A stretch of DNA of 51,911 nucleotides from an uncultured Candidatus Saccharibacteria bacterium (GCA_964435835.1 CAYSZX010000003.1:1-51911), one strand, 5' to 3'. Positions 1 to 12,201 are shown, numbered from the stretch's first letter. Notes: a model not told the origin generated them from the letters alone. Numbers and translations are program-made.

Positions 1-10
1 AACTTAGAAG

Positions 11-245
11 AATAAGGTAATATTACCTAAAAGTGAAAAATAAAAATGTTGAAATCTTTAATTAATTATAAAACAAAATCAGTTAATAAATCAGCAGGAA
101 TTTTAACAGTTTCTGCTATTATTAGCAAAATACTGGGAGTGGCTAGAGATTGGCTTTTGGCTAAGAATTTTGGGGCAGGAAGCGAGTTGGATGTTTATTT
201 TACTGCTTTTAAGATTCCGGATTTTATTTACAATATTTTGATTTT
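11..245 (+). repeat. Direct repeat copy 1: murJ 5' region (copy 2 at ~10540-10772)
   Basis: 46-246 aligns with 10573-10773 with about 13 differences counted by eye; 190-245 is identical to 10717-10772; upstream AATAAGGTAATATTAC shared (11-26 / 10540-10555). Confidence 0.95.
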
Positions 246-261
246 AGAGAGATTGTTGTGA
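46..261 (+). pseudogene. murJ: Truncated 5' fragment of murJ (71 aa)
   Basis: First 67 aa nearly identical to the full MurJ at 10573, then diverges (ERLL*). Confidence 0.9.
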
Positions 262-340: not shown

Positions 341-1414
341 ATGAAATTACCTAATTTTTTAAAAAGAAAACAGAATCAGGATAGTCTAAAAAATATGAGT
401 TATCCTAGAGTGGGTATTAGTCTTGGAGCTTCTTGGTCTTGGGGGGTCAGCATGATAGCGACAATGGCATTTATGAATACAATGGGTATTCTTCCTGCTC
501 TGGTGTGGGTGATTGGGAATATTTTGGCCATTCCGTTGTTTGGTTTTATTAAAGTTGGGATTAGAGGTTTTAAAAATTGGCTTAATTTTGTACCTTTTGT
601 TCTATTTGCCCTTTTTATTGCTTTAATGGCAATTATAATAAATATGCAGGCTTTAATTACGGGATTGGGAGGTGGACACGATATAGTTTCCTATAAATTT
701 TTAGACAACAACTATAGTGTTCCACTAGTAATAGGATTAGCACTTTTTGTTTTGTTTTTTGTATATAAATATGGTTTAAAAGGAGATGTTTTAAGCGATA
801 ATGGATACTATATTTTGCAGCTTGGCGCGGTAGTAGTATTAGCGGTTTCCTCAGTATTTCAGAGTAGTTTTAATATTAACCCTAACCTTGAATTAGTGAC
901 CCAAAAAGGAATCGAGTGGGTTTTCCCTTTGGGCTTTTTGGGTATAGTTACTGGGGTTTTCACTGATCCCATGATGTGGCAAAGGTTTGAGCAAAAATCA
1001 GAGGTGTTGAAGCTTAGTTTCTGGGGAGCATTCTGGTTTGCAATTTATATGTTTTTCGTTGTTCTTACAGGTTTATTCTTTAGACCAAATCTGTTTTTAG
1101 GAACTATGTTGTTAATAGTTATATTTGCATTAGCGCTATCTACTATCGGGAGCGCGATTGTGGCTACTCAATTTTTGACATCTAAGATAGGAGTTGGAAA
1201 ATTATTAGGTTTACTTTTTTCTCTTAGTGCTGTAATTTCGTGGCCTCTTCTTATGGATTTTGGAATGTCTGAAATCTGGGGTATTTATGCTAGCTATAGA
1301 TGGAAGATAGTCACTACAATGATTGCCGTTTCTTTTATGGGTAAATACGTTATAAAGAAAAAACAAAAGAAAAAAATTCTTTCTTTATTTAACAAAGTCA
1401 AGTTATATAATTGA
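341..1414 (+). CDS. Multi-pass membrane protein, probable sodium:solute symporter-like transporter
   Basis: About 10 hydrophobic segments; N-terminal SLGASWSWG..(G)...W..GN pattern and D..MWQR motif resemble SSS-family transporters. Confidence 0.55.
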   Translation: MKLPNFLKRKQNQDSLKNMSYPRVGISLGASWSWGVSMIATMAFMNTMGILPALVWVIGNILAIPLFGFIKVGIRGFKNWLNFVPFVLFALFIALMAIIINMQALITGLGGGHDIVSYKFLDNNYSVPLVIGLALFVLFFVYKYGLKGDVLSDNGYYILQLGAVVVLAVSSVFQSSFNINPNLELVTQKGIEWVFPLGFLGIVTGVFTDPMMWQRFEQKSEVLKLSFWGAFWFAIYMFFVVLTGLFFRPNLFLGTMLLIVIFALALSTIGSAIVATQFLTSKIGVGKLLGLLFSLSAVISWPLLMDFGMSEIWGIYASYRWKIVTTMIAVSFMGKYVIKKKQKKKILSLFNKVKLYN

Positions 1415-1432
1415 AAAATAATTAATTTAATT

Positions 1433-2740
1433 ATGTCAAAAGCAAAAAAAGTGAATTCTCTAAGAGGCTTTAAAAGTATATATCCTCAAGAATGGGAAAA
1501 ATGGAAATATGTTAGGAAAACAATTGAAGAAGTTTTAGAAAGTTTTGCTTTTAAAGAGATAAGTACTCCTTCAATAGAAAGCAGAAACCTGTATAAAGTT
1601 AAGCCTCCTTGGTCGGAAGGGATGATTGAAGAAACCTTTAGTTTTTTTGATTCTCAGGGTAATCATCTTACTCTTATCCCTGAACAGACTCCAACTAGAT
1701 CAAGAATGGTTCAAGAGTTAAAGCATATAGAACTACCAATTCGCTGGTTTAATACTTCAAAAAGATGGAGACAGGAAAAAGAAATTAAAAAGGATAGGGC
1801 AAGAGAGTTCTGGCAGACGGACGCAGATGTAATTGGCTGTGATTCAGTAGAGTCTGATGCGGAAATATTAGCTTGTGTGACAGAGATTTTTAAAAAGCTA
1901 AAATTAAGGAATAGAGTTGATATTCTAATAAGTGACAGGAAGCTTTTAGAAAATATTATTACTAGGGTAGGGGTTAAGAAGAAGAATTACTACGAAGCAG
2001 TAAAGATAATTGACGATAAAGAAAAAATTAACAAAAAAGAGTTTCAGGAGAGATTTGAGAATATTGGATTAAACAGAGAAGAAATTAGACTTCTTTATGA
2101 AATAATTTCTCTAAAGGGACCCATTAAGGAAACTGTAAGAGAAATTCAAGAAAAATACAGACAAACTGCGAAGAGAGGGATGGAAAGACTAGACAGAATT
2201 CTTTCTCTCTCTGAGCTTCTGGAGACATATAAGATATATGATATTTGTAAACTGGATTTATCTATAGCTCGTGGATCTTTTTATACAGGTTTAATTTTTG
2301 AGGTTTTTGACAAAGATAAAATTTTTGGTGCTTTAGCAGGAGGAGGACGCTATGATTGGCTAGTTAGTATGTATGGTGATAAAGATTTGCCGGCGATTGG
2401 GTTTGGTTTTGGCCACTTAGGAGTTGTACAAAAACTCAAAAAGGATCATTTATTTGACAACCTTTTAGAAAAAAAGAGGGTGTTTGTCTTTTGTGAAAAC
2501 AAGAAAGATTATGAATTCTTAATAAAGCTTGTTAAAAGATTAAGAGAAAAGAATTATAAGGTAGAAGCTGATGTTGGGTATAGAGCAGACAAGGATAAAG
2601 ATTTCTATATGGTTATTAAGCTAAAAAATAATTTTTTAGAAAAGAAAAAAATAGAAATTCAGGTTAAAAAAGTAAACAAAAAATTCACAGTTAAAGGATT
2701 CGATCGATGTGTAAGGAAAATTGCTTCATTTTTTGAATAA
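1433..2740 (+). CDS. Divergent histidyl-tRNA synthetase paralog (class II aaRS)
   Basis: RGFKSIYP N-terminus, TPSIE, PEQTPT, motif 2 WRQE...REFWQTDAD, ARGSFYTG, AGGGRYD, PAIGFGFG; degenerate C-terminal anticodon-binding domain. Confidence 0.85.
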   Translation: MSKAKKVNSLRGFKSIYPQEWEKWKYVRKTIEEVLESFAFKEISTPSIESRNLYKVKPPWSEGMIEETFSFFDSQGNHLTLIPEQTPTRSRMVQELKHIELPIRWFNTSKRWRQEKEIKKDRAREFWQTDADVIGCDSVESDAEILACVTEIFKKLKLRNRVDILISDRKLLENIITRVGVKKKNYYEAVKIIDDKEKINKKEFQERFENIGLNREEIRLLYEIISLKGPIKETVREIQEKYRQTAKRGMERLDRILSLSELLETYKIYDICKLDLSIARGSFYTGLIFEVFDKDKIFGALAGGGRYDWLVSMYGDKDLPAIGFGFGHLGVVQKLKKDHLFDNLLEKKRVFVFCENKKDYEFLIKLVKRLREKNYKVEADVGYRADKDKDFYMVIKLKNNFLEKKKIEIQVKKVNKKFTVKGFDRCVRKIASFFE

Positions 2741-2853
2741 CAAAGATTGTAATTGAGTTAATAGTTTAAGTAATTTTTAATAATAATTAGACCCGCAAGA
2801 GGGTTTCTGTATCTATATGTGCGGAAGAACGATAAGATAATACAATTGAGGTC

Positions 2854-2882
2854 TTGACAAATTTTTTTGAAAGATGTAGATT
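2854..2882 (+). promoter_or_regulatory. Sigma70-type promoter for tRNA-His
   Basis: TTGACA-17 nt-TAGATT directly upstream of the tRNA. Confidence 0.7.
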
Positions 2883-2903
2883 ATTAATAGAAATTCAAAA
2901 GAT

Positions 2904-2977
2904 GGTGCCTATAGTGTAATTGGTTAGCATTGAGGCCTGTGAAGCCTTAAGAGCGGGTTCAAATCCCGCTAGGCACC
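2904..2977 (+). tRNA. tRNA-His(GTG)
   Basis: Cloverleaf: acceptor GTGCCTA/TAGGCAC with encoded G-1:C73, anticodon arm GAGGC-CTGTGAA-GCCTT, T arm GCGGG-TTCAAAT-CCCGC; CCA not encoded. Confidence 0.95.
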
Positions 2978-3163
2978 CTCTTTTTAAGCTTATTATAGTT
3001 CTTTTCTTTAAAATTTTAATCTCTCTTAAAGGAAGGTAAAAAACCTTCCTTATTATTTTTTTAGGCAACCTTATAAAAATTTTAGCTCTATTTATTCGTA
3101 AGCACAACTGTTGCTCGACAAACTACGAGTTATTGTTTATTCTTTCTCTAGGTGGTTAAAAAA

Positions 3164-3898
3164 ATGAAAAAAGATAAAAAAGAATTTCTTTTTATAGCTG
3201 CTACACATGGTGATGAAGAAATTGGAGTAGCTACTATGAAAAAGATAAAAACCAATAAAGATAAATTTGATTGGATTATTGGCAACCCAAAAGCTTTCGA
3301 GCAAGAAAACAGGTTTTTTGAACGAGATTTAAACCGCTCTGCTCCGGGAAAAAAGAACGCCGAAGAATATGAACTTAGAAGAGCTTACGAAATAATGAAA
3401 ATCTGTAAAGATTACAAATATATCATTGATTTGCACGGAGCTTCAGCTTCTTGCGGAAGTTTTACATTGATTAGTTATCCAAAATTGGAGAATCTGTTCC
3501 TAGCTAGTGCTTTACCTATTAAGAACGTCGTTCTTTGGCCCTCTAAAGAGTGGAAAGAATTTGGACCACTAACTCAATTTGTTGATTGTGGCTTGGAAAT
3601 AGAATCTGGACCTAAAAAAGACCAAAAAACAAGGAGTAAACTTCGCAAGATTGTAAAGTCAATTCTTAAGAACGGAGTTAACTTTAATCTATATCAAATA
3701 AAAGAAAAAAAATGGTTTTTAGTATATGGGAAGATGAAAAAGACTAAAGCAAGAAAAAACATATCTAAAGAAATGAAAGAATTTAAAAAGATCGAAGTTG
3801 AAAAGGAGTCTTTTTATCCCTTATTAATTAATCAATACAAGGATTTAGTTTGCTATAAGATGAAGAAAATGGACTTTTTTGACCAATTTTCTTATTAG
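3164..3898 (+). CDS. Succinylglutamate desuccinylase/aspartoacylase (AstE/AspA, M14-like Zn hydrolase) family protein
   Basis: THGDE, GNPKA...RF..RDLNR, DLHG and EIE motifs; AGGTGG RBS before ATG 3164. Confidence 0.85.
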   Translation: MKKDKKEFLFIAATHGDEEIGVATMKKIKTNKDKFDWIIGNPKAFEQENRFFERDLNRSAPGKKNAEEYELRRAYEIMKICKDYKYIIDLHGASASCGSFTLISYPKLENLFLASALPIKNVVLWPSKEWKEFGPLTQFVDCGLEIESGPKKDQKTRSKLRKIVKSILKNGVNFNLYQIKEKKWFLVYGKMKKTKARKNISKEMKEFKKIEVEKESFYPLLINQYKDLVCYKMKKMDFFDQFSY

Positions 3899-4244
3899 AT
3901 TTAAATTTTCTAATAAGAGATAGGTGATTAAAAAGATTATCTATCCCTTCTTATTGTAAGTTAAGTTCCAAAGAGACCTAAGCAAGTCTTAATAAACTGT
4001 TCTTTTTTTTATTTAAATTGACTAATATAGTTCTAATATTATTTACAACTCGCGACACTCGCTATTAAGGTCTGATTAATTTTAGCTTTTTTATTTTTTA
4101 ACATTTTTTACTTGTGTTTTTGCACATTACCGAGCTACATTGAATTTTTTTTTAGATATGTTATCGTATTTATAGTGAATAGAGTTTTTGTGTAAACAAA
4201 AACCTATTATAAAATTAATTATAAAATAAAAAAGGTGTATAATA

Positions 4245-5012
4245 ATGAAAAGTAATATATTTGTTATTACGGCTGCAGATGGTAATGGAACTGCAATTCG
4301 GGTATTAGATCACGCTTTATCGCGTGAAGAATATGCTAAACGTGGCAAGCAGATTGGTAAAGATATGGAACCTTTTGGTGCAGAACAAGCAGGGTTTCTT
4401 GTCCCAGACGAAAATCATTTTGAAATGGCAGGAGGAGAGTTTTGTGGCAACGCGGCTCGCTCGGCTGCAATCCTTATTTCAGAAATTCAAAAAAAACCAC
4501 ATGTGTCATTTACAATGTCGGGATATAGTGGAACAGTAAGTGCTAAGGTTAAGAAAAAAAGTGATACTGGTTATTTTGTTGAATGTGTTTTTCCCGGTTT
4601 ATCAACCGACTTGAAGGATATTACTCTTTCTAATGGTCAAGTTGCTACAGTAGTTGATTTGGGAGGTATTGTGCATGTAATCATAGAAGCATCTTTTCCG
4701 TCTAAGACGGAGGATTATGAGTCTGCCCACCGAGATATCACTAAGGAGCTCAACTTTGACGAGCGAAGTGCTGTCGGGGTTGTGTGGATAAATCGTATCG
4801 ATGGTGCGGTCAAAATGCATCCTGTAGTATGGGTTAAGGATGTCGATACTTTTTTCTATGAACAATCCTGTGGCTCGGGCACTATTGCCGTTAGTAAAGT
4901 GACGGGTATTTCTTCCATAATTCAGCCTACTGGTAAGAAAATTGAGGCAGAAATAAATGACGAAGAAGTAATCCTTAGAAGTAAAATGGAGGTGGTTTAT
5001 AGTGCGGATTGA
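4245..5012 (+). CDS. DapF-fold PLP-independent racemase, CntK/histidine racemase-like
   Basis: GNGT, EQAGF, EMAGGEFCGNA and PVVWV...EQSCGSGT two-cysteine motifs match the CntK pattern (EQVGF, MSGNEFCGNA, ENSCGSG) better than DapF. Confidence 0.8.
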   Translation: MKSNIFVITAADGNGTAIRVLDHALSREEYAKRGKQIGKDMEPFGAEQAGFLVPDENHFEMAGGEFCGNAARSAAILISEIQKKPHVSFTMSGYSGTVSAKVKKKSDTGYFVECVFPGLSTDLKDITLSNGQVATVVDLGGIVHVIIEASFPSKTEDYESAHRDITKELNFDERSAVGVVWINRIDGAVKMHPVVWVKDVDTFFYEQSCGSGTIAVSKVTGISSIIQPTGKKIEAEINDEEVILRSKMEVVYSAD

Positions 5013-5598
5013 TTATGTCTATGTGGAAGAGGAACTGCGATATTGCAAAGGTTTCATAGAGGTTTATAAAGAAGCCTTTGGTGGACATCCTTACTATGAA
5101 GTTTATACAAACAGAGAAGTTTTTGAGAATATTTGGAAGCCACATCTTGATAAGGGAATTATTGTTCTCGCTTGTGATAATGGTTGTGTTGTTGGGTTTG
5201 GATGCGCAAAACCGCTTTTCAAGTCTGATAAAGAGATTCAGTCTTTCTTAGAGAAATCTAAGCTTAACTTAGGTCTTTCTATTGAACTTAGTAAGACATG
5301 GTATATCTCTGAACTGGGTGTTCACAAAATGTACCGTCGTCAAGGTATTGGATTACAACTTGTTGGTCAATGCATCGCTCACATCAGCGACTCTAGCTGT
5401 TCTTATTATGTTATGCGGACAGCAGCGAAAGATTCAAATTCTATTGGATTGTTTAAAAATATTGGTGCAATTGAAGTGTCTGGTACACAAGATGTTTCTG
5501 AATCTGATCAAATTCAGATCAATAAATCTAAAAGCACCAAACGCGTTTATCTCTATGGCCGTTGCGAAGAAGCGCTTAGAAGAATTTCAGTTATTTAA
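5002..5598 (+). CDS. GNAT-family N-acetyltransferase
   Basis: YISELGVHKMYRRQGIG acetyl-CoA motif A, N..SIGLF...G; overlaps the racemase stop; GGAGGTGG RBS. Confidence 0.85.
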   Translation: MRIDYVYVEEELRYCKGFIEVYKEAFGGHPYYEVYTNREVFENIWKPHLDKGIIVLACDNGCVVGFGCAKPLFKSDKEIQSFLEKSKLNLGLSIELSKTWYISELGVHKMYRRQGIGLQLVGQCIAHISDSSCSYYVMRTAAKDSNSIGLFKNIGAIEVSGTQDVSESDQIQINKSKSTKRVYLYGRCEEALRRISVI

Positions 5599-5649
5599 GA
5601 AAAGACTTAATTTTAATAAATTGGTCATCCATAGTGATGACCCTTTTTT

Positions 5650-6327
5650 TTATTTCTTTTCTATCTTGTATTTAATTTGAGAGTAGAGAGATTTTTTTCT
5701 CTCGTAAAAACAGGCCCATTCACGATCTCCGTATGAAAAATGCCACCATTCTCCATAAAAGGGAGCAAAATTTTCCTTAGTTAAGACATCATGAAGTAGT
5801 ATACGATTCTCTTGTTGTTTTTTAGAAAGCCCTTTTGCAAATGTTTTTATCTTTTTATTTTTAAGCTCAAAAAGCTTAGTGCCCATATCTAGATTTTTTC
5901 CTTTTTTATTGGTGAGAGTAACATCAATCGCACCACCTGTCGGGTGTCCGGCAACTAATGGCACAGCAACAAAATTGTGAGTTAATGTGTCTAATTCTTC
6001 GTTGCTGAGAGATGGATTTAGATTTTGAAGTTCATCACGTTTTTCTCTAAAGTATTTCTTTTGGATATTAGGGTGTCTATATCCATAAACGACCTTAATT
6101 CGCAATTTGTAATGTTTTTTAAGTCTTTTATTAATTGTCGCGAGTTTTTTAGCAACAGTATCTCGTACAAAAATACGTTTTCCTGTATAAGGAATCATGT
6201 CATTTTTTTTATGTTTGGCGATGATGTCTGAATCATAATAACACACATTAATCAACGGTTCTTTGTTTTCTCCAGGAAGTATTTTTTTAACTTCTTGATA
6301 AGTAATAATTTTTCTTTTTTGGGGCAT
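5650..6327 (-). CDS. D-alanyl-D-alanine dipeptidase (VanX/DdpX, M15D) family
   Basis: YGYRHP..Q, GHPTGGAIDVTL, DMGT and EWWHFSYGD motifs. Confidence 0.9.
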   Translation of the reverse strand: MPQKRKIITYQEVKKILPGENKEPLINVCYYDSDIIAKHKKNDMIPYTGKRIFVRDTVAKKLATINKRLKKHYKLRIKVVYGYRHPNIQKKYFREKRDELQNLNPSLSNEELDTLTHNFVAVPLVAGHPTGGAIDVTLTNKKGKNLDMGTKLFELKNKKIKTFAKGLSKKQQENRILLHDVLTKENFAPFYGEWWHFSYGDREWACFYERKKSLYSQIKYKIEKK

Positions 6328-6544
6328 ATTTTTAAATATTAAAAGAAGTAATAAGTAACTATAGTGTTTGGGTATTGAAAAACTTTTTACCTAAATTTTA
6401 TTAACCCAAGACATTTTTACATTGTAATAAAGTTGTTTTACCACATAAAGCATGTCGAGATTGTTTTTGTTTCTTTAGCCTAATCTCTTGATAGTATAGC
6501 AAGAATAATTTACTCTAACAACAGAAATTTAAGAAGGTGATAAA

Positions 6545-7093
6545 ATGTCAGAAATTAAAAAAAGAAGAATACAAATTGGAGTAATGGGGTCTGCGGCGGA
6601 CTTAAATTATACTAAAGAACTGGAGAAAATTGCGGAGGGCACAGGTCGATTAATTGCCGAGAGTGGGAATATTACTATCTACGGAGCGGAAAAAGATTAT
6701 GATTCTTTATCTACAGCCGCTGCAAGAGGAGCGAAGAATGCAGGTGGATTAACTGTCGGGGTTACTTATGGAAAAGGTAAAGATATTTGGGATAAAGAGA
6801 AAAATACAGACGTTATAATTTGTAGTGGTTTAGAAAGAGGAGGAGGTCGTGAGTTTGTGTTGGTCAACAGTTGTGATGGAATCATTGCTATTTCGGGAGG
6901 CTCTGGAACCATGAACGAGATGCTGGTAGCATATCAGTTGAACATTCCAATAGTAGTTATTAAAAATACAGGTGGATGGGCTGATAAAATGGCTGATCGT
7001 TATTTTGATAATAGAAAGCGCATGAAGGCAGTAGCAGCTAAAAGTCCGGAAGACGCAGTTTCAAAAATTATAAAATTGATAAGTGAGAAGTGA
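6545..7093 (+). CDS. TIGR00725 / LOG-SLOG family Rossmann-fold protein
   Basis: IGVMGS, AARGAK.AGGLTVG, R...LVNSCDGIIAISGGSGTMNE, TGGWA motifs. Confidence 0.85.
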   Translation: MSEIKKRRIQIGVMGSAADLNYTKELEKIAEGTGRLIAESGNITIYGAEKDYDSLSTAAARGAKNAGGLTVGVTYGKGKDIWDKEKNTDVIICSGLERGGGREFVLVNSCDGIIAISGGSGTMNEMLVAYQLNIPIVVIKNTGGWADKMADRYFDNRKRMKAVAAKSPEDAVSKIIKLISEK

Positions 7094-7152
7094 TAAAAAT
7101 TTTATTTATTACCGTAGCCGCCCTAATAATAAATGACTTCTTTTTTAATTAG

Positions 7153-7182
7153 AAAGAGCTTCGATTATCAAGCTCTTTTTTT
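7153..7182 (+). terminator. Intrinsic terminator
   Basis: AAAGAGCTT-8 nt-AAGCTCTTT followed by a T run. Confidence 0.7.
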
Positions 7183-7317
7183 AAATCGGAAATTTTTAGA
7201 GGTTGATTTTTCTTGACAATCCTTTTGATAATGTTATAGAATGCTTCTAGAGATTGAATAAGTATGCTCTTTAACATATAATAATACTGAAAGTAAATAA
7301 TACTGGAGGAAAAAAAT

Positions 7318-8631
7318 ATGAAAGAAAAAAGAGTTTTAAAAGGTTTTCAAGATTTCTTGCCCGAGAAAATGGTTTTAAAAAATTATTTTATTGGCAAGAT
7401 TAGAGCTGTTTATGAAAAATTTGGCTTTCTCCCTCAAGACACTCCATGTTTAGAATACGCGGACTTATTGCTTGGCAAGTATGGGGAAGAAGGGGAAAGA
7501 TTAATTTATGAATTCAGAGACAAAGGGGATCGTCATGTAGCTTTGAGATATGATTTGACTGTTCCTCTAGGGAGAGTAGTTCAAATGTATGAAAGAGAAA
7601 TTGATTTTCCGTATCGTAGATATCAAATAGGAAAGGTTTGGCGAGCAGACAAGCCTGGAAGAGGCCGATTTAGAGAGTTTATTCAAATAGATGCAGATAT
7701 AATAGGAGATGATTCAATACTTTCTGACGCAGAAACTGTTCTTCTAATTATTAATACAATGGATTCTTTAGGGATTGAAACGATGGTTAGAATAAATTCC
7801 CGCGAAGTCTTAGATGTTTTTGTTGATGTTTGTGGGATTGATGAAGAAAGGGGGGTAGACTTAATGAGAGTTATTGATAAATTCGAAAAAGTCGGGATGA
7901 AAGGAGTTATGGAAGAATTAGAAGAACTAGAATTTTCTTTAGAGATTAGAGAAAAAGTAAAAGATTATCTTTCTATTAAGGGCAACAGTGAGGAAATATT
8001 ATCATCTCTTAAGGAATTTCTAAAGGAAGGGAAGAATTCCAAGGAAGCTCTTGAGCGATTAATGAAAACTGTTGAGTTGATCAATAAAGCAGGCGATTAC
8101 AAAGAAAAGTTTAGAATTGATCCAACCATAGCTAGAGGTCTTGACTACTATACAGGTATAATTTTTGAAACAGCCTTTCTTAAAAGTCCTAGTGTGGGTA
8201 GTATTTGTTCTGGTGGTAGATTCGACCGTTTAATAAAATTGTCTTCTGGAGACTTTACGCCAGCCGTGGGAATGTCTATAGGACTAGACAGACTCTTCTT
8301 TGTTTTAGAAGAAACAGACTCTTTGCCTGATATTGAAAGAACGACCACACAGGTTTTTGTAGCTAATTTTGATGAAGAGTATATAACAGATTATCTAAAA
8401 TTGGCGAACGAATTGCGCAAAGAAGGTATCGCAGTAGAGATTTTCCCCCGACCGGTAAATTTATCTAGTCAGTTGAGTACCGCTGAAAGCAAGAAAGTTC
8501 CTATTGTTCTTATAATGGGACCAGAGGAAATGAAGAGCAACACGGTAACGGTTAGAAACATGAAGGAGCGGAATCAGGAAAAGATTTCTCGAAAACAGCT
8601 TGTTAGTAAAATTAAAAAATTAGTTGGGTAG
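7318..8631 (+). CDS. hisS: Histidine--tRNA ligase (canonical motifs)
   Basis: KGFQDFLP, LRYDLTVP, WRADKPGRGRFREFIQ.D.D, ARGLDYYTG, SGGRFD, GMSIGLDRL; intact anticodon-binding domain. Confidence 0.97.
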   Translation: MKEKRVLKGFQDFLPEKMVLKNYFIGKIRAVYEKFGFLPQDTPCLEYADLLLGKYGEEGERLIYEFRDKGDRHVALRYDLTVPLGRVVQMYEREIDFPYRRYQIGKVWRADKPGRGRFREFIQIDADIIGDDSILSDAETVLLIINTMDSLGIETMVRINSREVLDVFVDVCGIDEERGVDLMRVIDKFEKVGMKGVMEELEELEFSLEIREKVKDYLSIKGNSEEILSSLKEFLKEGKNSKEALERLMKTVELINKAGDYKEKFRIDPTIARGLDYYTGIIFETAFLKSPSVGSICSGGRFDRLIKLSSGDFTPAVGMSIGLDRLFFVLEETDSLPDIERTTTQVFVANFDEEYITDYLKLANELRKEGIAVEIFPRPVNLSSQLSTAESKKVPIVLIMGPEEMKSNTVTVRNMKERNQEKISRKQLVSKIKKLVG

Positions 8632-8659
8632 ACCGCTTTTTTAAAGGTCTACTTTTTTT
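8628..8659 (+). terminator. Probable intrinsic terminator between hisS and hutH
   Basis: GTAGACC-11 nt-GGTCTAC followed by T7. Confidence 0.55.
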
Positions 8660-8681
8660 ATTTAAAATAAAAGTTTAATTT

Positions 8682-10223
8682 ATGGACAAATTAATTATAG
8701 GTAGTCATAATTTAACTATTGATGATGTTGTGAATGTTGCAAGAGACAAAGATATTATAATCGTGCTCTCAGAAAAAGCTATTGAACAGGTTAGACGAGG
8801 GCGTTCCTTCGTGGAACAGAATGTTAAGGAAGGAGAAGTTATTTATGGTGTTACTACAGGTTTCGGAAAATTCCAAGACAAAAAAATCCCTTTAGATAAA
8901 GCCAAGGAACTTCAACATAATCTTATCAAGAGTCATTCAGTAGGGGCTGGTGATCCTTTACCGGAAGATGTTGTTAGAGCAGCAATGATTATTGTTGTGA
9001 ATTCTCTTTCAAAGGGTTATTCAGGAGTTAGAGTGAAGGTTGTAAAGAAAATTGTTGAATTGCTTAACAAAAACATCTACCCTTATGTTCCTGAACAAGG
9101 CTCGGTTGGAGCTAGTGGTGATTTAGCTCCCTTGGCTCATATCGCTCTTGTTCTTACTGGAGAGGGAGAAGTTCTAGTCCACCACAAAAGGCTTAAATCG
9201 ATTAAAGTTTTAAAGAAGGAGAAGATAAAACCTCTTTCTTTAAGTTATAAAGAGGGTTTAGCGCTTATTAATGGAACTGCTGTAATGAGTGGATTAGCAT
9301 GTCTGAATATTAATTATATGAAGAATCTTTTAAAGAGTGCGGACATTGCTTCTTCCCTAAGTCTAGAGGCGATGGAGGGATTAATGAGCCCTTTTGATGA
9401 GGATTTGAATAAATTAAGACCTCATCAAGGACAAATAAATACAGCGTTAAATATAAAAAGAATATGTCAAGGAAGTGGATTGGTTTATTGGGATAAACAT
9501 CCAAAAAAAGTTCAGGATTCTTATTCGCTTAGATGTATTCCTCAAGTTCATGGAGCCCATAAGGACGCATTAAATAAGATTAAATCTTGGATGTCTACAG
9601 AGATTAACTCTGTTACTGATAACCCTTTAATTTTCTCTAAAAAAGATAAGGTTATTTCAGGGGGTAATTTCCATGGGCAGCCTGTGTCCTTGGCTATGGA
9701 TTTTTTAGGCATAGCTACTGCTGATTTATCAAATATTTCTGAAAGAAGAACAGCTAAAATGGTAGATGCAGACAATAATGAAGGACTACCAGCTTTCTTG
9801 ATATCTGAGAAGAGAGCTGGATTAGATAGTGGCTTCATGATAATGCAATATACTGCTGCCGCTCTCGTCGCGGAAAACAAAGCATTAGCTCATCCGGTGT
9901 CAGTTGATTCTATACCGACCTCTGCTAATAAGGAAGATCATGTGAGTTTTGGCACTATTGCTGCTCGCAAGTGCCGAGAAATAATTCAAAATTCTATCAA
10001 TGTAGTAGCAATAGAACTATTAAGTGCAGCACAAGGATGTGATTTTAGGGAAACCAAGAAACTTGGGAAAGGAAGCAAGGTTGCTTATGAATTAATTCGA
10101 AGTAAGGTCAAAAAAGTAGAAAAAGACAGAGTTTTATATACTGATATGGAAAAGATTAACAAAATTATTAAAAATGGGGAGCTTGTTACTAAAGTAGAAA
10201 AATCAATTGGAGAACTAAAATAA
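8682..10223 (+). CDS. hutH: Histidine ammonia-lyase
   Basis: YGVTTGFG, LIKSHSVG (His-type SH), MIO-forming GASGDLAPLAH, KEGLALINGT, QDSYSLRCIPQVHG, SGGNFHG, EDHVS. Confidence 0.95.
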   Translation: MDKLIIGSHNLTIDDVVNVARDKDIIIVLSEKAIEQVRRGRSFVEQNVKEGEVIYGVTTGFGKFQDKKIPLDKAKELQHNLIKSHSVGAGDPLPEDVVRAAMIIVVNSLSKGYSGVRVKVVKKIVELLNKNIYPYVPEQGSVGASGDLAPLAHIALVLTGEGEVLVHHKRLKSIKVLKKEKIKPLSLSYKEGLALINGTAVMSGLACLNINYMKNLLKSADIASSLSLEAMEGLMSPFDEDLNKLRPHQGQINTALNIKRICQGSGLVYWDKHPKKVQDSYSLRCIPQVHGAHKDALNKIKSWMSTEINSVTDNPLIFSKKDKVISGGNFHGQPVSLAMDFLGIATADLSNISERRTAKMVDADNNEGLPAFLISEKRAGLDSGFMIMQYTAAALVAENKALAHPVSVDSIPTSANKEDHVSFGTIAARKCREIIQNSINVVAIELLSAAQGCDFRETKKLGKGSKVAYELIRSKVKKVEKDRVLYTDMEKINKIIKNGELVTKVEKSIGELK

Positions 10224-10539
10224 ATTAATAAAGAAAACATCATTCTTAAAAGGGTTTTTAATCAAAAAGAAAAAGCTCTGTTTTTTTTAAAAGTATTTCA
10301 AGCTTTATCAGTTGAGAAAAAATCTGATTGAAACAATTTTTTTGATAATTTAAGAAAATGTAAGCTTGATTTTGGTTAAAGCTGCTATCTTTTTCTGTTC
10401 GGTTTTTTCTAAGGCTAGAAGTTTCTTAATTCAGCAAGACCACTTATTGTAAAAATACATTTTTTCTTTTATGACTCTATTGGCTAGAATTATTTTCATA
10501 GTTTTTCCATTTATGATTTAAATTTGGATAAGCAGGAAT

Positions 10540-10772
10540 AATAAGGTAATATTACTTTAAACTAAAATTGAAATGTTGAAATCTTTAATTAATTACAAGA
10601 CAAAATCAGTTAATAAATCAGCAGGAATTTTAACGGTTTCTGCTGTTGTTAGTAAAATACTGGGAATAGTTAGAGATTGGCTTTTGGCTAAGAATTTTGG
10701 GGCAGGAAGCGAACTTGATGTTTATTTTACTGCTTTTAAGATTCCGGATTTTATTTACAATATTTTGATTTT
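10540..10772 (+). repeat. Direct repeat copy 2: murJ 5' region
   Basis: Matches 11-245. Confidence 0.95.
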
Positions 10773-12201
10773 GGGAGGAATGTTGGTTTCTTTTTTGCCT
10801 TTATTCTCTGAATATTTTTCTAAGAATAAAGAACTAGCTTGGAAGTTTACTTCAAACCTTTTAAATATTTTTATTGTTTCTTTAATAACTTTAAGTTTTA
10901 TTCTTTTCTTTTTTACGCCATCCTTAATAGATATTATTGCTCCTGGGTTTAGTTATCAGCAAACGGAACAGGCAATTACTTTAACTCGAATAATGTTATT
11001 GAGCCCTATTTTCTTTGGGTTAAGTTCTATTTTTTCTGGAATTTTACAATATTTTAATAAATTTTTTATTTATAGTTTATGTCCTGTTATCTATAATTTA
11101 GGGATTATTTTTGGAATCTTATTTCTATCTCCTAAAATGGGAATCTTAGGAGTTGTATTAGGAGTTGTTTTTGGAACTTTTCTGCATTTTGTTATTCAGA
11201 TTCCTTCTGTTATTGACTGCGGTTTTCAATATAAGGCTGTTTTTGATTTAGATAATTATAAGATTAATAAAGTTTTTTCTTTAATGTTGCCAAGAATGTT
11301 TGGAGTTTCTGCTCAGCAAATAAATTTAATTATTACTAATGCTATTGCTTCTACTTTAGCTGAAGGTTCAATTACTATTTTTAATTTTGCCAATAATATT
11401 CAATATTTTCCTGTAGGGATTATCGGAGTTCCTTTTGCGGTTGCTGCTTTTCCGACTTTGTCTAAAAACTTGGCTGAAAATAATAAAGAGAGGTTTATAG
11501 ATAATTTTTCAAAAATATTTAATCAGATTGTTTATTTAACTCTTCCGGCTACTGTTTTTATTTTTATCTTAAGAGAAGAAATAGTTGGAATTCTTTTACA
11601 GCACGGATTATTTTCTCCTTTGTCGGCTAAGCTTTCTTCATCTAGTTTAGGCTTGTTTTGCTTAGGAATTCTTGCTTCTGCTTTAATTCCTTTATTATTT
11701 AGAGCTTTCTTTGCTTTGCAAGATACAAAAACTCCAACTCTAATTGCTCTTTTTTCGATGGCAGTTAATATTGTTTTGAGTTTTCTGTTTACTAAAGAGT
11801 GGTTTTACCTTCATCAAAAATTACGAAATATTTTTTCTTTTCTCCGAACAGCTGATATCGCTGTTTTAGGTTTACCTTTAGCTTTTTCTGTGGCTGTTAT
11901 CCTTCAACTTGTTTTAATGATTCTTTTTTTAAAAAATAAGTTTAAAGAAATTGATTTTGAAAAAATTGGTACTAACTTCTTAAAGGTTTTATTTTCTAGT
12001 CTTGTTTTGTTTTTTTCAAGTTATGTATTAAAATTTCTAGTTAGTGAGATTTTTACTACTCAATCCTTGTTTTTAGATTTCTTTCAAGTTTTTATAATAG
12101 GAACGATCGGTTCTTTGATTTATTTATTAGTTACTCTTATTTTATCTGTTTCTTCAACGGATTTAATTTTGGCTAAAATATTTAAAAATGCAAAAAATTA
12201 A
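10573..12201 (+). CDS. murJ: Lipid II flippase MurJ (MviN)
   Basis: SKILG.VRD, FGAG.ELD.YFTAFKIPD, FLPLFS, RAFFALQDTKTP; many TM helices. Confidence 0.95.
   Translation: MLKSLINYKTKSVNKSAGILTVSAVVSKILGIVRDWLLAKNFGAGSELDVYFTAFKIPDFIYNILILGGMLVSFLPLFSEYFSKNKELAWKFTSNLLNIFIVSLITLSFILFFFTPSLIDIIAPGFSYQQTEQAITLTRIMLLSPIFFGLSSIFSGILQYFNKFFIYSLCPVIYNLGIIFGILFLSPKMGILGVVLGVVFGTFLHFVIQIPSVIDCGFQYKAVFDLDNYKINKVFSLMLPRMFGVSAQQINLIITNAIASTLAEGSITIFNFANNIQYFPVGIIGVPFAVAAFPTLSKNLAENNKERFIDNFSKIFNQIVYLTLPATVFIFILREEIVGILLQHGLFSPLSAKLSSSSLGLFCLGILASALIPLLFRAFFALQDTKTPTLIALFSMAVNIVLSFLFTKEWFYLHQKLRNIFSFLRTADIAVLGLPLAFSVAVILQLVLMILFLKNKFKEIDFEKIGTNFLKVLFSSLVLFFSSYVLKFLVSEIFTTQSLFLDFFQVFIIGTIGSLIYLLVTLILSVSSTDLILAKIFKNAKN

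Follow-up and report, generated by a model that had tools for sequence, protein, structure and literature searches.

The locus between two murJ repeats in an uncultured Candidatus Saccharibacteria bacterium raises the question of what two histidyl-tRNA synthetases (HisRS), a tRNA-His, a histidine racemase-type enzyme and a histidine ammonia-lyase do side by side. The locus lies at 341-10223 of GCA_964435835.1 CAYSZX010000003.1:1-51911, a stretch of 51,911 nucleotides which was analysed whole and is here called the window. The window is contig C3 of the genome under study (G000; 538 kb, 96% complete). A preliminary description, made from the sequence alone, placed nine open reading frames (ORFs) and one tRNA-His(GTG) in this island, and their coordinates stand. 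It treated the locus as a single island; instead, the ~10 kb are imported, and are a mosaic of two recurring gene modules. Module A is a transporter plus an altered HisRS (hisS1), and module B is a trio of racemase, GNAT acyltransferase and VanX-like peptidase. As to function, we give about an even chance to histidine salvage into translation, with the ammonia-lyase HutH as an overflow valve. The genes of the island are as follows.

341-1414, plus strand: compact SSS/APC-fold transporter, module A (from a structure model)
1433-2740, plus strand: hisS1, altered HisRS paralog of halophilic-archaeal type, module A (from motifs and tree)
2905-2978, plus strand: extra tRNA-His(GTG), canonical (G-1:C73, G51:C63), of the same type as the copy on contig C8
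3152-3898, plus strand: AstE/AspA-family deacylase with motifs HGDE, DLNR and DLH (PF24827 over cut-off)
4245-5012, plus strand: cofactor-independent histidine racemase-type enzyme, module B core (from conserved residues and PDB matches)
5002-5598, plus strand: GNAT acyltransferase, module B core, overlapping the racemase stop (PF00583)
5650-6327, minus strand: VanX-like (M15) zinc peptidase, module B core (from residue equivalents)
6545-7093, plus strand: SLOG cluster-4 protein of a histidine-linked subfamily (PF18306)
7318-8631, plus strand: hisS2, intact extra HisRS of RxDLT type (TIGR00442 over cut-off; catalytic motifs and anticodon domain intact)
8682-10223, plus strand: orphan histidine ammonia-lyase HutH (TIGR01225 over cut-off; SH and ASG motifs)

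Family scans agree with these assignments: they find two HisRS, an AstE/AspA deacylase, a histidine-racemase-like protein, a GNAT, an M15 VanX-like peptidase, HutH, and a SLOG protein which resembles TIGR00725 and scores under its cut-off. The histidine theme and the non-random clustering proposed earlier are supported by these scans and by recurrence elsewhere. The clustering goes beyond chance because the genes recur together in other genomes, while the racemase and a close HutH were found in none of 60 relatives; one relative carries a 38% lyase in a different gene context. By the preliminary description, a lack of co-occurrence elsewhere would have spoken against its proposal, but the gene-neighbourhood search yielded 54 racemase loci and 13 module-A loci.

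The 54 loci of module B were collected from GTDB genomes with a racemase alignment. They are mostly labelled Patescibacteria, with some Clostridia and others, and neighbours were counted up to 10 kb on each side of the racemase. The VanX-like peptidase is present at 43 loci and the GNAT at 36 by tblastn or 38 by profile. hisS is seen at 25 (three partial), tRNA-His at 14, a MIO/ammonia-lyase at 11 and the AstE deacylase at 7. HisG (13 loci), HisE (10) and YerC/HisR (8) also recur, and another SLOG subfamily is found at 4. Neither the transporter nor murJ occurs at any of the 54. Thinned to 44 distinct racemases, the set retains VanX at 34, GNAT at 27 (tblastn), hisS at 23, tRNA at 13 and the lyase at 11. 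Racemase distances track those of the GNAT (rho 0.67) and VanX (rho 0.72; Mantel P 0.001), but not those of HisRS (rho 0.06) or the lyase (rho 0.28). The trio is thus the inherited core, and the synthetase and the lyase are recruited repeatedly.

In the racemase, N14, E65, C67, G68, N69, E206, C209 and S211 are invariant (37/37). The first catalytic-cysteine motif is retained in 53 of the 54 loci and the second in 52. The best PDB matches are 9cr1/9cr6 (E 5e-24), and the scores lie under the NCBIfam cut-offs of NF052224 and NF033599 (96 vs 400 bits and 54 vs 300 bits). According to the accessible text of PMC11602996, the invariant residues are those proposed for histidine binding in HisR, the racemase of Fusobacterium nucleatum. 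Of these, E65, E206 and the N-terminal N14 are the imidazole- and amine-contacting positions of that proposal. The island enzyme is predicted to convert D-histidine (D-His) to L-His.

The peptidase keeps the zinc ligands and the equivalents of VanX R71, H116, D123, E181 and H184. VanX S114-S115 are replaced by A-G, invariant in 28/28, and the VanX family score is 41 vs 320 bits. We take the VanX-equivalent residues to serve in catalysis and metal binding, and S114-S115 to form the carboxylate site. The GNAT has no close solved relative, and its profile gave generic PDB matches only. At L044, L066, L086 and L263, long ORFs cover two trio genes (VanX-racemase, racemase-GNAT or GNAT-racemase), which suggests fusions. 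At L046, L042, L043, L064 and L062, an orphan HisG, often with HisE, stands beside the trio and is possibly a histidine sensor. A full histidine pathway beside it was rejected: HisD was found in 0/5 and HisA/F over cut-off in 0/5 of the orphan-HisG genomes tested. In two Clostridia loci (L089:3690-4733 and L091:8584-9630), a 347-aa protein with weak resemblance to cyclodipeptide synthases, a lead only, lies between tRNA-His and a His leader.

Module A was found at 13 metagenome loci, several of them redundant. At all 13, the transporter is directly upstream of a hisS1-clade gene, the two lying -11 to +1 nt apart. The transporter model has a predicted local distance difference test (pLDDT) score of 93.6 from a 72-sequence alignment. 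CHT1 is the best structural match (Z 31.7, root-mean-square deviation 3.4, 325 aligned), and CHT1, a SiaT-type sialic acid symporter and SGLT head the structure-match lists, indicating a LeuT/APC fold. A profile match to DUR3 (E 8e-5) was also obtained. The window transporter has no Pfam hit, and PF00474 matches 1 of 72 family members.

The hisS1 clade comprises ~25 proteins with 50-61% identity and is sister to halophilic-archaeal HisRS (100/100). It keeps the catalytic motifs, and a loop shortened by a deletion to RG-SFYTG and the loss of the anticodon helix are seen in 20/20 aligned members. Over the catalytic parts, identity is 72-85% among clade members and 48-58% to the archaeal sisters, to which the C-terminus of hisS1 is 15% identical. 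hisS1 is not a canonical HisRS: it has no intact RGLxYY loop and no PF03129, and scores 241 vs 287 bits. An ordinary hisS adjoins module A in 10/13 loci, and the remaining three stop at contig edges. At L092:3801-8423, L100:1581-6246 and L103:8318-13034, module A forms a 4.3-kb cassette between inverted repeats of 156-194 nt, 97-99% identical, with a small helix-turn-helix-like gene before the transporter. This cassette is likely a non-autonomous mobile unit.

In total, G000 has three HisRS and two tRNA-His. The native housekeeping hisS lies at C6:17155-18570; it is 71% identical to the orthologue of G001, of the same genus, and shares its gene context. Both island synthetases are therefore extras, and the "canonical hisS" of the island is not the housekeeping copy for which it had been taken. 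The copies elsewhere, which the preliminary description left to be counted, are a second tRNA-His on C8 and this third hisS, which it had missed. In the native HisRS, as in that of G001, the RGLDYY loop is followed by a long insertion rich in Glu and Lys. Two separate hisS loci are seen in just 2/60 relatives, and at least two hisS matches occur in 21/23 genomes with a module-adjacent hisS.

The motif R/H-[FY]-D-x-T is common to 21/22 full-length module-B HisRS, 6/7 HisRS that follow module A, and hisS2; native copies carry RPE.T instead. HisRS with this motif form one tree group (SH 99 with 83 rows; 100/99 with 45 rows, where seven dead copies and near-duplicates were omitted). hisS2 falls in the module clade (100/99), as the sister of the HisRS following module A (96/91), and therefore the island may be a module-A cassette with other genes inserted. 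In G062, G068 and G069, the native-site hisS lacks catalytic motifs, and the module HisRS is the only intact one found. Unless a gene is unassembled, the module HisRS must therefore serve translation there, which argues against a dedicated tailoring ligase. Including these, seven module-carrying genomes (G061, G062, G068, G069, G076, G077 and G085) have, at the native lepB-hisS site (L210-L213 and L215-L217), a hisS near full length which has lost its catalytic motifs. It might be a conserved pseudo-synthetase, or displacement might be in progress.

A specialised non-translational tRNA was ruled out, since the tRNA-His of the window is canonical. Elsewhere, genomic G-1 is missing in 7/16 module tRNA-His genes (L039, L063, L069, L074, L083, L084 and L088), three of which also lack C73. 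Thg1 was found in 0/5 tested genomes with a G-1-less tRNA-His. Such genes possibly belong to G-1-independent HisRS/tRNA pairs.

The AstE/AspA deacylase family is seen in 7/54 racemase loci and 13/67 archaeal-type hisS loci. The deacylase slot is taken by unrelated families, AstE elsewhere and M20 in L088 and L268. In low-GC halophilic-archaeal loci (L133, L146, L148, L150, L153, L156 and L166), an AbrB-like regulator, GNAT, deacylase and hisS stand in one run with no racemase. Five close homologues (55-80%) of the SLOG protein were found. Two are directly behind a HisR gene, one of these with a 12/14 operator site, and a third adjoins a deacylase, GNAT and hisS. Distant homologues have such histidine-linked genes within 1.5 kb in 0/19 cases. 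Regarding HutH, 7/10 full-length module lyases share the SH motif of the window enzyme and three differ, and HutH is co-oriented next to module genes in ~6/11 lyase loci. Urocanase was not found in G000 (96% complete), nor in 5 other genomes with HutH and the module.

The murJ repeats reported earlier to bracket the island are real, at 7-258 and 10536-10785, and are 90% identical.

7-258, plus strand: left murJ repeat, native upstream DNA and murJ codons 1-67, then truncated
10536-10785, plus strand: right murJ repeat, 37 nt upstream and the 5' end of an intact murJ (10573-12201)

On C14, the DNA upstream of the left repeat matches the rnhA-murJ spacer of G001/G002 with 79% identity over 440-472 nt. 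The left repeat keeps this native spacer, of which the right repeat retains just 37 nt. Between the two copies, codons 1-67 show 9 synonymous and 4 non-synonymous changes (P 3e-4), and therefore the copies were working alleles while they diverged, rather than one being a decaying duplicate. An empty rnhA-murJ-lepA site is seen in 5/5 relatives examined. From the arrangement of the repeats, a circle bearing the murJ 5' fragment of a relative probably brought the island in by single-crossover integration. Among the ORFs of the island and its spacers, no integrase or transposase was found. Viral carriage was rejected, with no racemase or transporter relative among viral contigs, and a plasmid search gave 6 racemase matches, all distant.

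The GC content at third codon positions of the island genes is at the 93rd-100th percentile of 361 other ORFs, and GC is uneven within the island (racemase 41%, hisS1 32%). The island spans several transcription units. The promoter match before hisS2 (7213-7242, 11/12) is the best of the region. An Rfam scan of the island found the tRNA alone. Two terminator-like hairpins are present.

5623-5642, detected on both strands: terminator-like hairpin where the GNAT and VanX genes converge
8626-8661, plus strand: terminator-like hairpin with a 9-bp stem and U-run between hisS2 and hutH (z -1.7, weak support)

An assembly chimera is unsupported: contigs of run X1, which may be the source sample, span six junctions including hutH-murJ at an even depth of ~5, similar to that at lepA. 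No island-free or excised joint was seen in the X1 reads, which are of low depth.

Regulation of module B in other genomes bears on its function. A HisR operator was defined with the consensus in the main text of PMC9413887 as a site of at least 12/14 within 2.5 kb upstream of the racemase. Such operators occur at 6/8 loci with a HisR gene (the other two score 11) and at 0/46 others (Fisher P 1e-6), against 0.075 loci in shuffles and 0 sites in 367 kb of distant DNA. According to the same text, histidine stimulates HisR binding. His-dense leader peptides gave 4 hits among 537 ORFs, three of them before the racemase (L072, L089 and L091). As sequence signals, the operators and His-leader attenuators of these genomes predict induction by histidine shortage. 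No T-box or His-leader reached the Rfam gathering score in the 15 loci scanned. At L064:13703-13810 (minus strand), a 22-codon leader that includes 7 His codons precedes hutH and stops just before a terminator hairpin. It can be speculated from this one case that a ribosome at the stop might block the hairpin and induce hutH when histidine is plentiful.

Because these operators and attenuators precede the racemase, scavenging and detoxification fits best among the three options of the preliminary description. In the reading that we favour, at even odds, the island secures the supply of L-histidyl-tRNA in a bacterium where no histidine pathway was found. This reading is built on gene content, recurrence, conserved catalytic residues and the switches before racemase genes elsewhere, and its enzymatic steps are proposed from them. 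First, histidine or a solute that contains it would enter through the SSS-fold transporter, with hisS1 as the transporter's histidine-activating or sensing partner, not a normal tRNA ligase. Second, the VanX-like peptidase and the deacylase would free histidine from D-configured dipeptides and N-acyl-histidine. Third, the racemase would convert D-His to L-His. In a fourth and weakest step, the GNAT might park D-His or surplus histidine in an N-acyl form, which the deacylase would return. Fifth, hisS2 together with the extra tRNA-His would channel L-His into translation. Sixth, HutH would irreversibly remove surplus L-His, so that the reversible racemase does not build up D-His. With the same evenly balanced confidence, salvage would account for the switches, the recruitment of synthetase and tRNA, and the convergent deacylases.

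Several facts weigh against salvage. HutH destroys what an auxotroph needs, and a reversible racemase yields D-His whenever L-His dominates. The need for a natural source of D-His strains the reading further. In the accessible text of PMC11602996, deletion of hisR in F. nucleatum causes a small growth lag only, with no D-His rescue. The orphan HisG/HisE and the SLOG protein are left unexplained. G000 has no HisR gene and no convincing leader, and its sole island site (11/14 at 4123) is one of 42 such sites genome-wide; the starvation switch is therefore borrowed from other genomes. Modules A and B occur together in 0/54 racemase loci, 0/13 module-A loci and 0/400 class genomes, where each alone is found in 2/400 and both transporter hits are more distant homologues. 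The settings of these two homologues hint at biosynthesis. One (L265, in the small genome G100) lies inside a nonribosomal peptide synthetase/polyketide synthase cluster, and the other (L266:6702-9846, in G435) has tRNA-Ser on one side and a sub-cut-off ProRS paralog of archaeal type on the other.

Comparison with known systems also sets the island apart. The HisR racemase of F. nucleatum (PDB 9CR1/9CR6) and CntK of Staphylococcus aureus, as far as their accessible descriptions go, share the two-cysteine DapF fold and all proposed histidine-binding residues with the island enzyme. The latter is far under both NCBIfam cut-offs, and its neighbours are GNAT, VanX and hisS, not cnt or folate genes. 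As the preliminary description held, this is not the his operon, the hut pathway or the staphylopine cluster: cntL, cntM and cntA-F were not found among island ORFs or scanned recurring neighbour families, and HutH has its histidine ammonia-lyase motifs in a genome where no urocanase was found. VanX/DdpX share the zinc ligands and the Arg71 and Glu181 equivalents with the island peptidase, which has A-G for S114-S115, scores far under the cut-offs and has no van or ddp genes around it. HisZ, the HisRS paralog that regulates short HisG, resembles hisS1 in its HisRS fold and degenerate C-terminus (TIGR00443, 173 vs 272 bits). In contrast to HisZ, hisS1 keeps the catalytic motifs, is of archaeal-type ancestry and has a transporter partner. 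No HisG of G000 matched one long-form query. All in all, the island falls outside the staphylopine, hut, his, van and HisZ systems.

A known D-to-L amino acid conversion pathway reportedly includes N-succinylamino acid racemase and desuccinylase steps. Its GNAT N-succinyltransferase step (Sakai et al. 2006) is described in the accessible text of PMC8762209, and the logic of GNAT, racemase and deacylase is similar to that of the island. Unlike in that pathway, the island racemase is of the DapF fold and keeps the free-amine-binding Asn/Glu, and a VanX-like peptidase and synthetases are added. With these residues kept, it should act on free histidine, not on the N-acyl form. In hdcP-hdcA-hdcB-hisRS2 of Lactobacillus reuteri, a transporter, a histidine-consuming enzyme and a second HisRS are likewise combined in an auxotroph, according to the available part of its description. 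The island has an ammonia-lyase, not a decarboxylase, and adds the racemase, GNAT, peptidase, tRNA and an altered third HisRS. The Gram-positive HisR (YerC) regulon shares its operator consensus and leader type with racemase loci of other genomes, but G000 has no HisR, and "racemase", "acetyltransferase" and "Patescibacteria" are absent from the main text of PMC9413887. No description of either module, or of the two joined, was found in the literature covered, which excludes supplements and most subscription journals; the supplements of PMC9413887 could list regulon members.

Among the alternatives, biosynthesis and export is rather unlikely for the whole island, and is strongest for module A. 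Here hisS1, perhaps with His-tRNA, would activate histidine for an amide bond, and the racemase and GNAT would tailor it. The product, a D-His or N-acyl-His chelator, signal or host effector, would leave by the transporter, with hisS2 and tRNA-His offsetting the drain. The strong conservation of the hisS1 adenylation motifs with the anticodon helix gone, the translational coupling to the transporter at 13/13 loci, and the settings of the transporter homologues in G100 and G435 all suit this alternative. So do the weak resemblance of the Clostridia neighbour to cyclodipeptide synthase (0.76-0.77) and the supply of D-His by CntK for staphylopine (PMC11602996, accessible text). Yet histidine repression and His-leader control suit supply rather than disposal into a product, HutH would compete for the substrate, and the recurrent neighbours of the trio include no ligase or CntL/CntM-like gene. 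Proteins of the SSS fold are, besides, normally importers. The tRNA-dependent ligase of the preliminary description is unlikely for hisS2, because the module HisRS do not co-diverge with the racemase and are the only intact HisRS found in three genomes; it may yet hold for the altered paralog hisS1.

Protection of translation against D-His, or against a histidine or histidyl-adenylate mimic from the host or neighbours, is unlikely. The compound would be inactivated by acetylation, hydrolysis, racemisation and deamination, and an alternative-type HisRS with an extra tRNA would resist it. Immunity to microcin C works alike, through MccE/MccF and a resistant synthetase. This alternative explains HutH and the GNAT directly, and it agrees with the single HisRS type, unlike the native enzyme, in 21/22 full-length module-B copies. 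S66 peptidases flank two loci, the VanX-like enzyme lacks the serines of the D-Ala-D-Ala enzyme, and His-leader attenuators also react to blocked charging. DTD1 was not found in G000 or 15 relatives, but it is present in 5/28 module genomes; the module as a DTD substitute was rejected on the same count, as DTD1 is missing lineage-wide. No His-mimic antibiotic was identified, and HisR control is left unexplained, since HisR senses free histidine, not an inhibitor (PMC9413887, main text). HisRS discriminates against D-His, according to the accessible text of a review (PMC13193766).

It is quite improbable that two separately mobile cassettes and a lyase, each functional in its own right, piled up at one integration site with no joint pathway. 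The several transcription units with unlike GC, the inverted-repeat cassette of module A elsewhere, the lack of any other locus or genome with both modules, and the lack of a local histidine switch favour such an incidental union. However, each module is so rare (2/400) that a chance meeting is unlikely, and the lyase, deacylase, SLOG protein, tRNA and hisS are all recurrent neighbours of the racemase. As indirect evidence, a hisS1-clade protein and a close racemase come from assemblies that agree in the length of the longest contig (21797) and in the number of contigs (3).

Editing of the cell wall with D-His, in which the VanX-like enzyme removes D-Ala-D-Ala, is very improbable: the insertion at murJ, the three Mur ligases present and the VanX family of the peptidase favour it, but the wall or surface-peptide editing proposed earlier found little support, as neither a D,D-ligase nor a Fem-type transferase is a recurrent neighbour of the trio, Ddl in G000 is a weak ATP-grasp hit only, the GNAT is a single acyl-CoA-type domain, GNAT-deacylase-hisS runs are also seen in archaeal loci, and murJ is beside the racemase in 0/54 other loci.

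A broader proposal is possible but doubtful, namely that the island represents an undescribed histidine chirality-and-supply system of ultra-small symbionts. Histidine would be trapped or ligated by an anticodon-blind HisRS paralog working with a minimal SSS-fold transporter, while a second, swappable HisRS/tRNA-His pair, in many cases lacking G-1, could take over from the native synthetase. Other synthetase paralogs may be partners of this transporter family too; if true, this would be a new class of "synthetase-paralog + transporter" modules. This locus adds the two modules joined, a genome with three synthetases, the anatomy of the insertion, and tests of co-divergence and of operators. It defines a new clade of HisRS paralogs, tied to a transporter, and module HisRS copies can replace the native enzyme. 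A physiological role beyond staphylopine synthesis becomes likely for cofactor-independent histidine racemases. Some genomes that carry the trio bear the labels Nanosynbacter and TM7 oral taxon 348, and therefore cultured oral relatives may allow tests. For the question of how Patescibacteria, which need histidine from outside, obtain it, the island names candidate enzymes.

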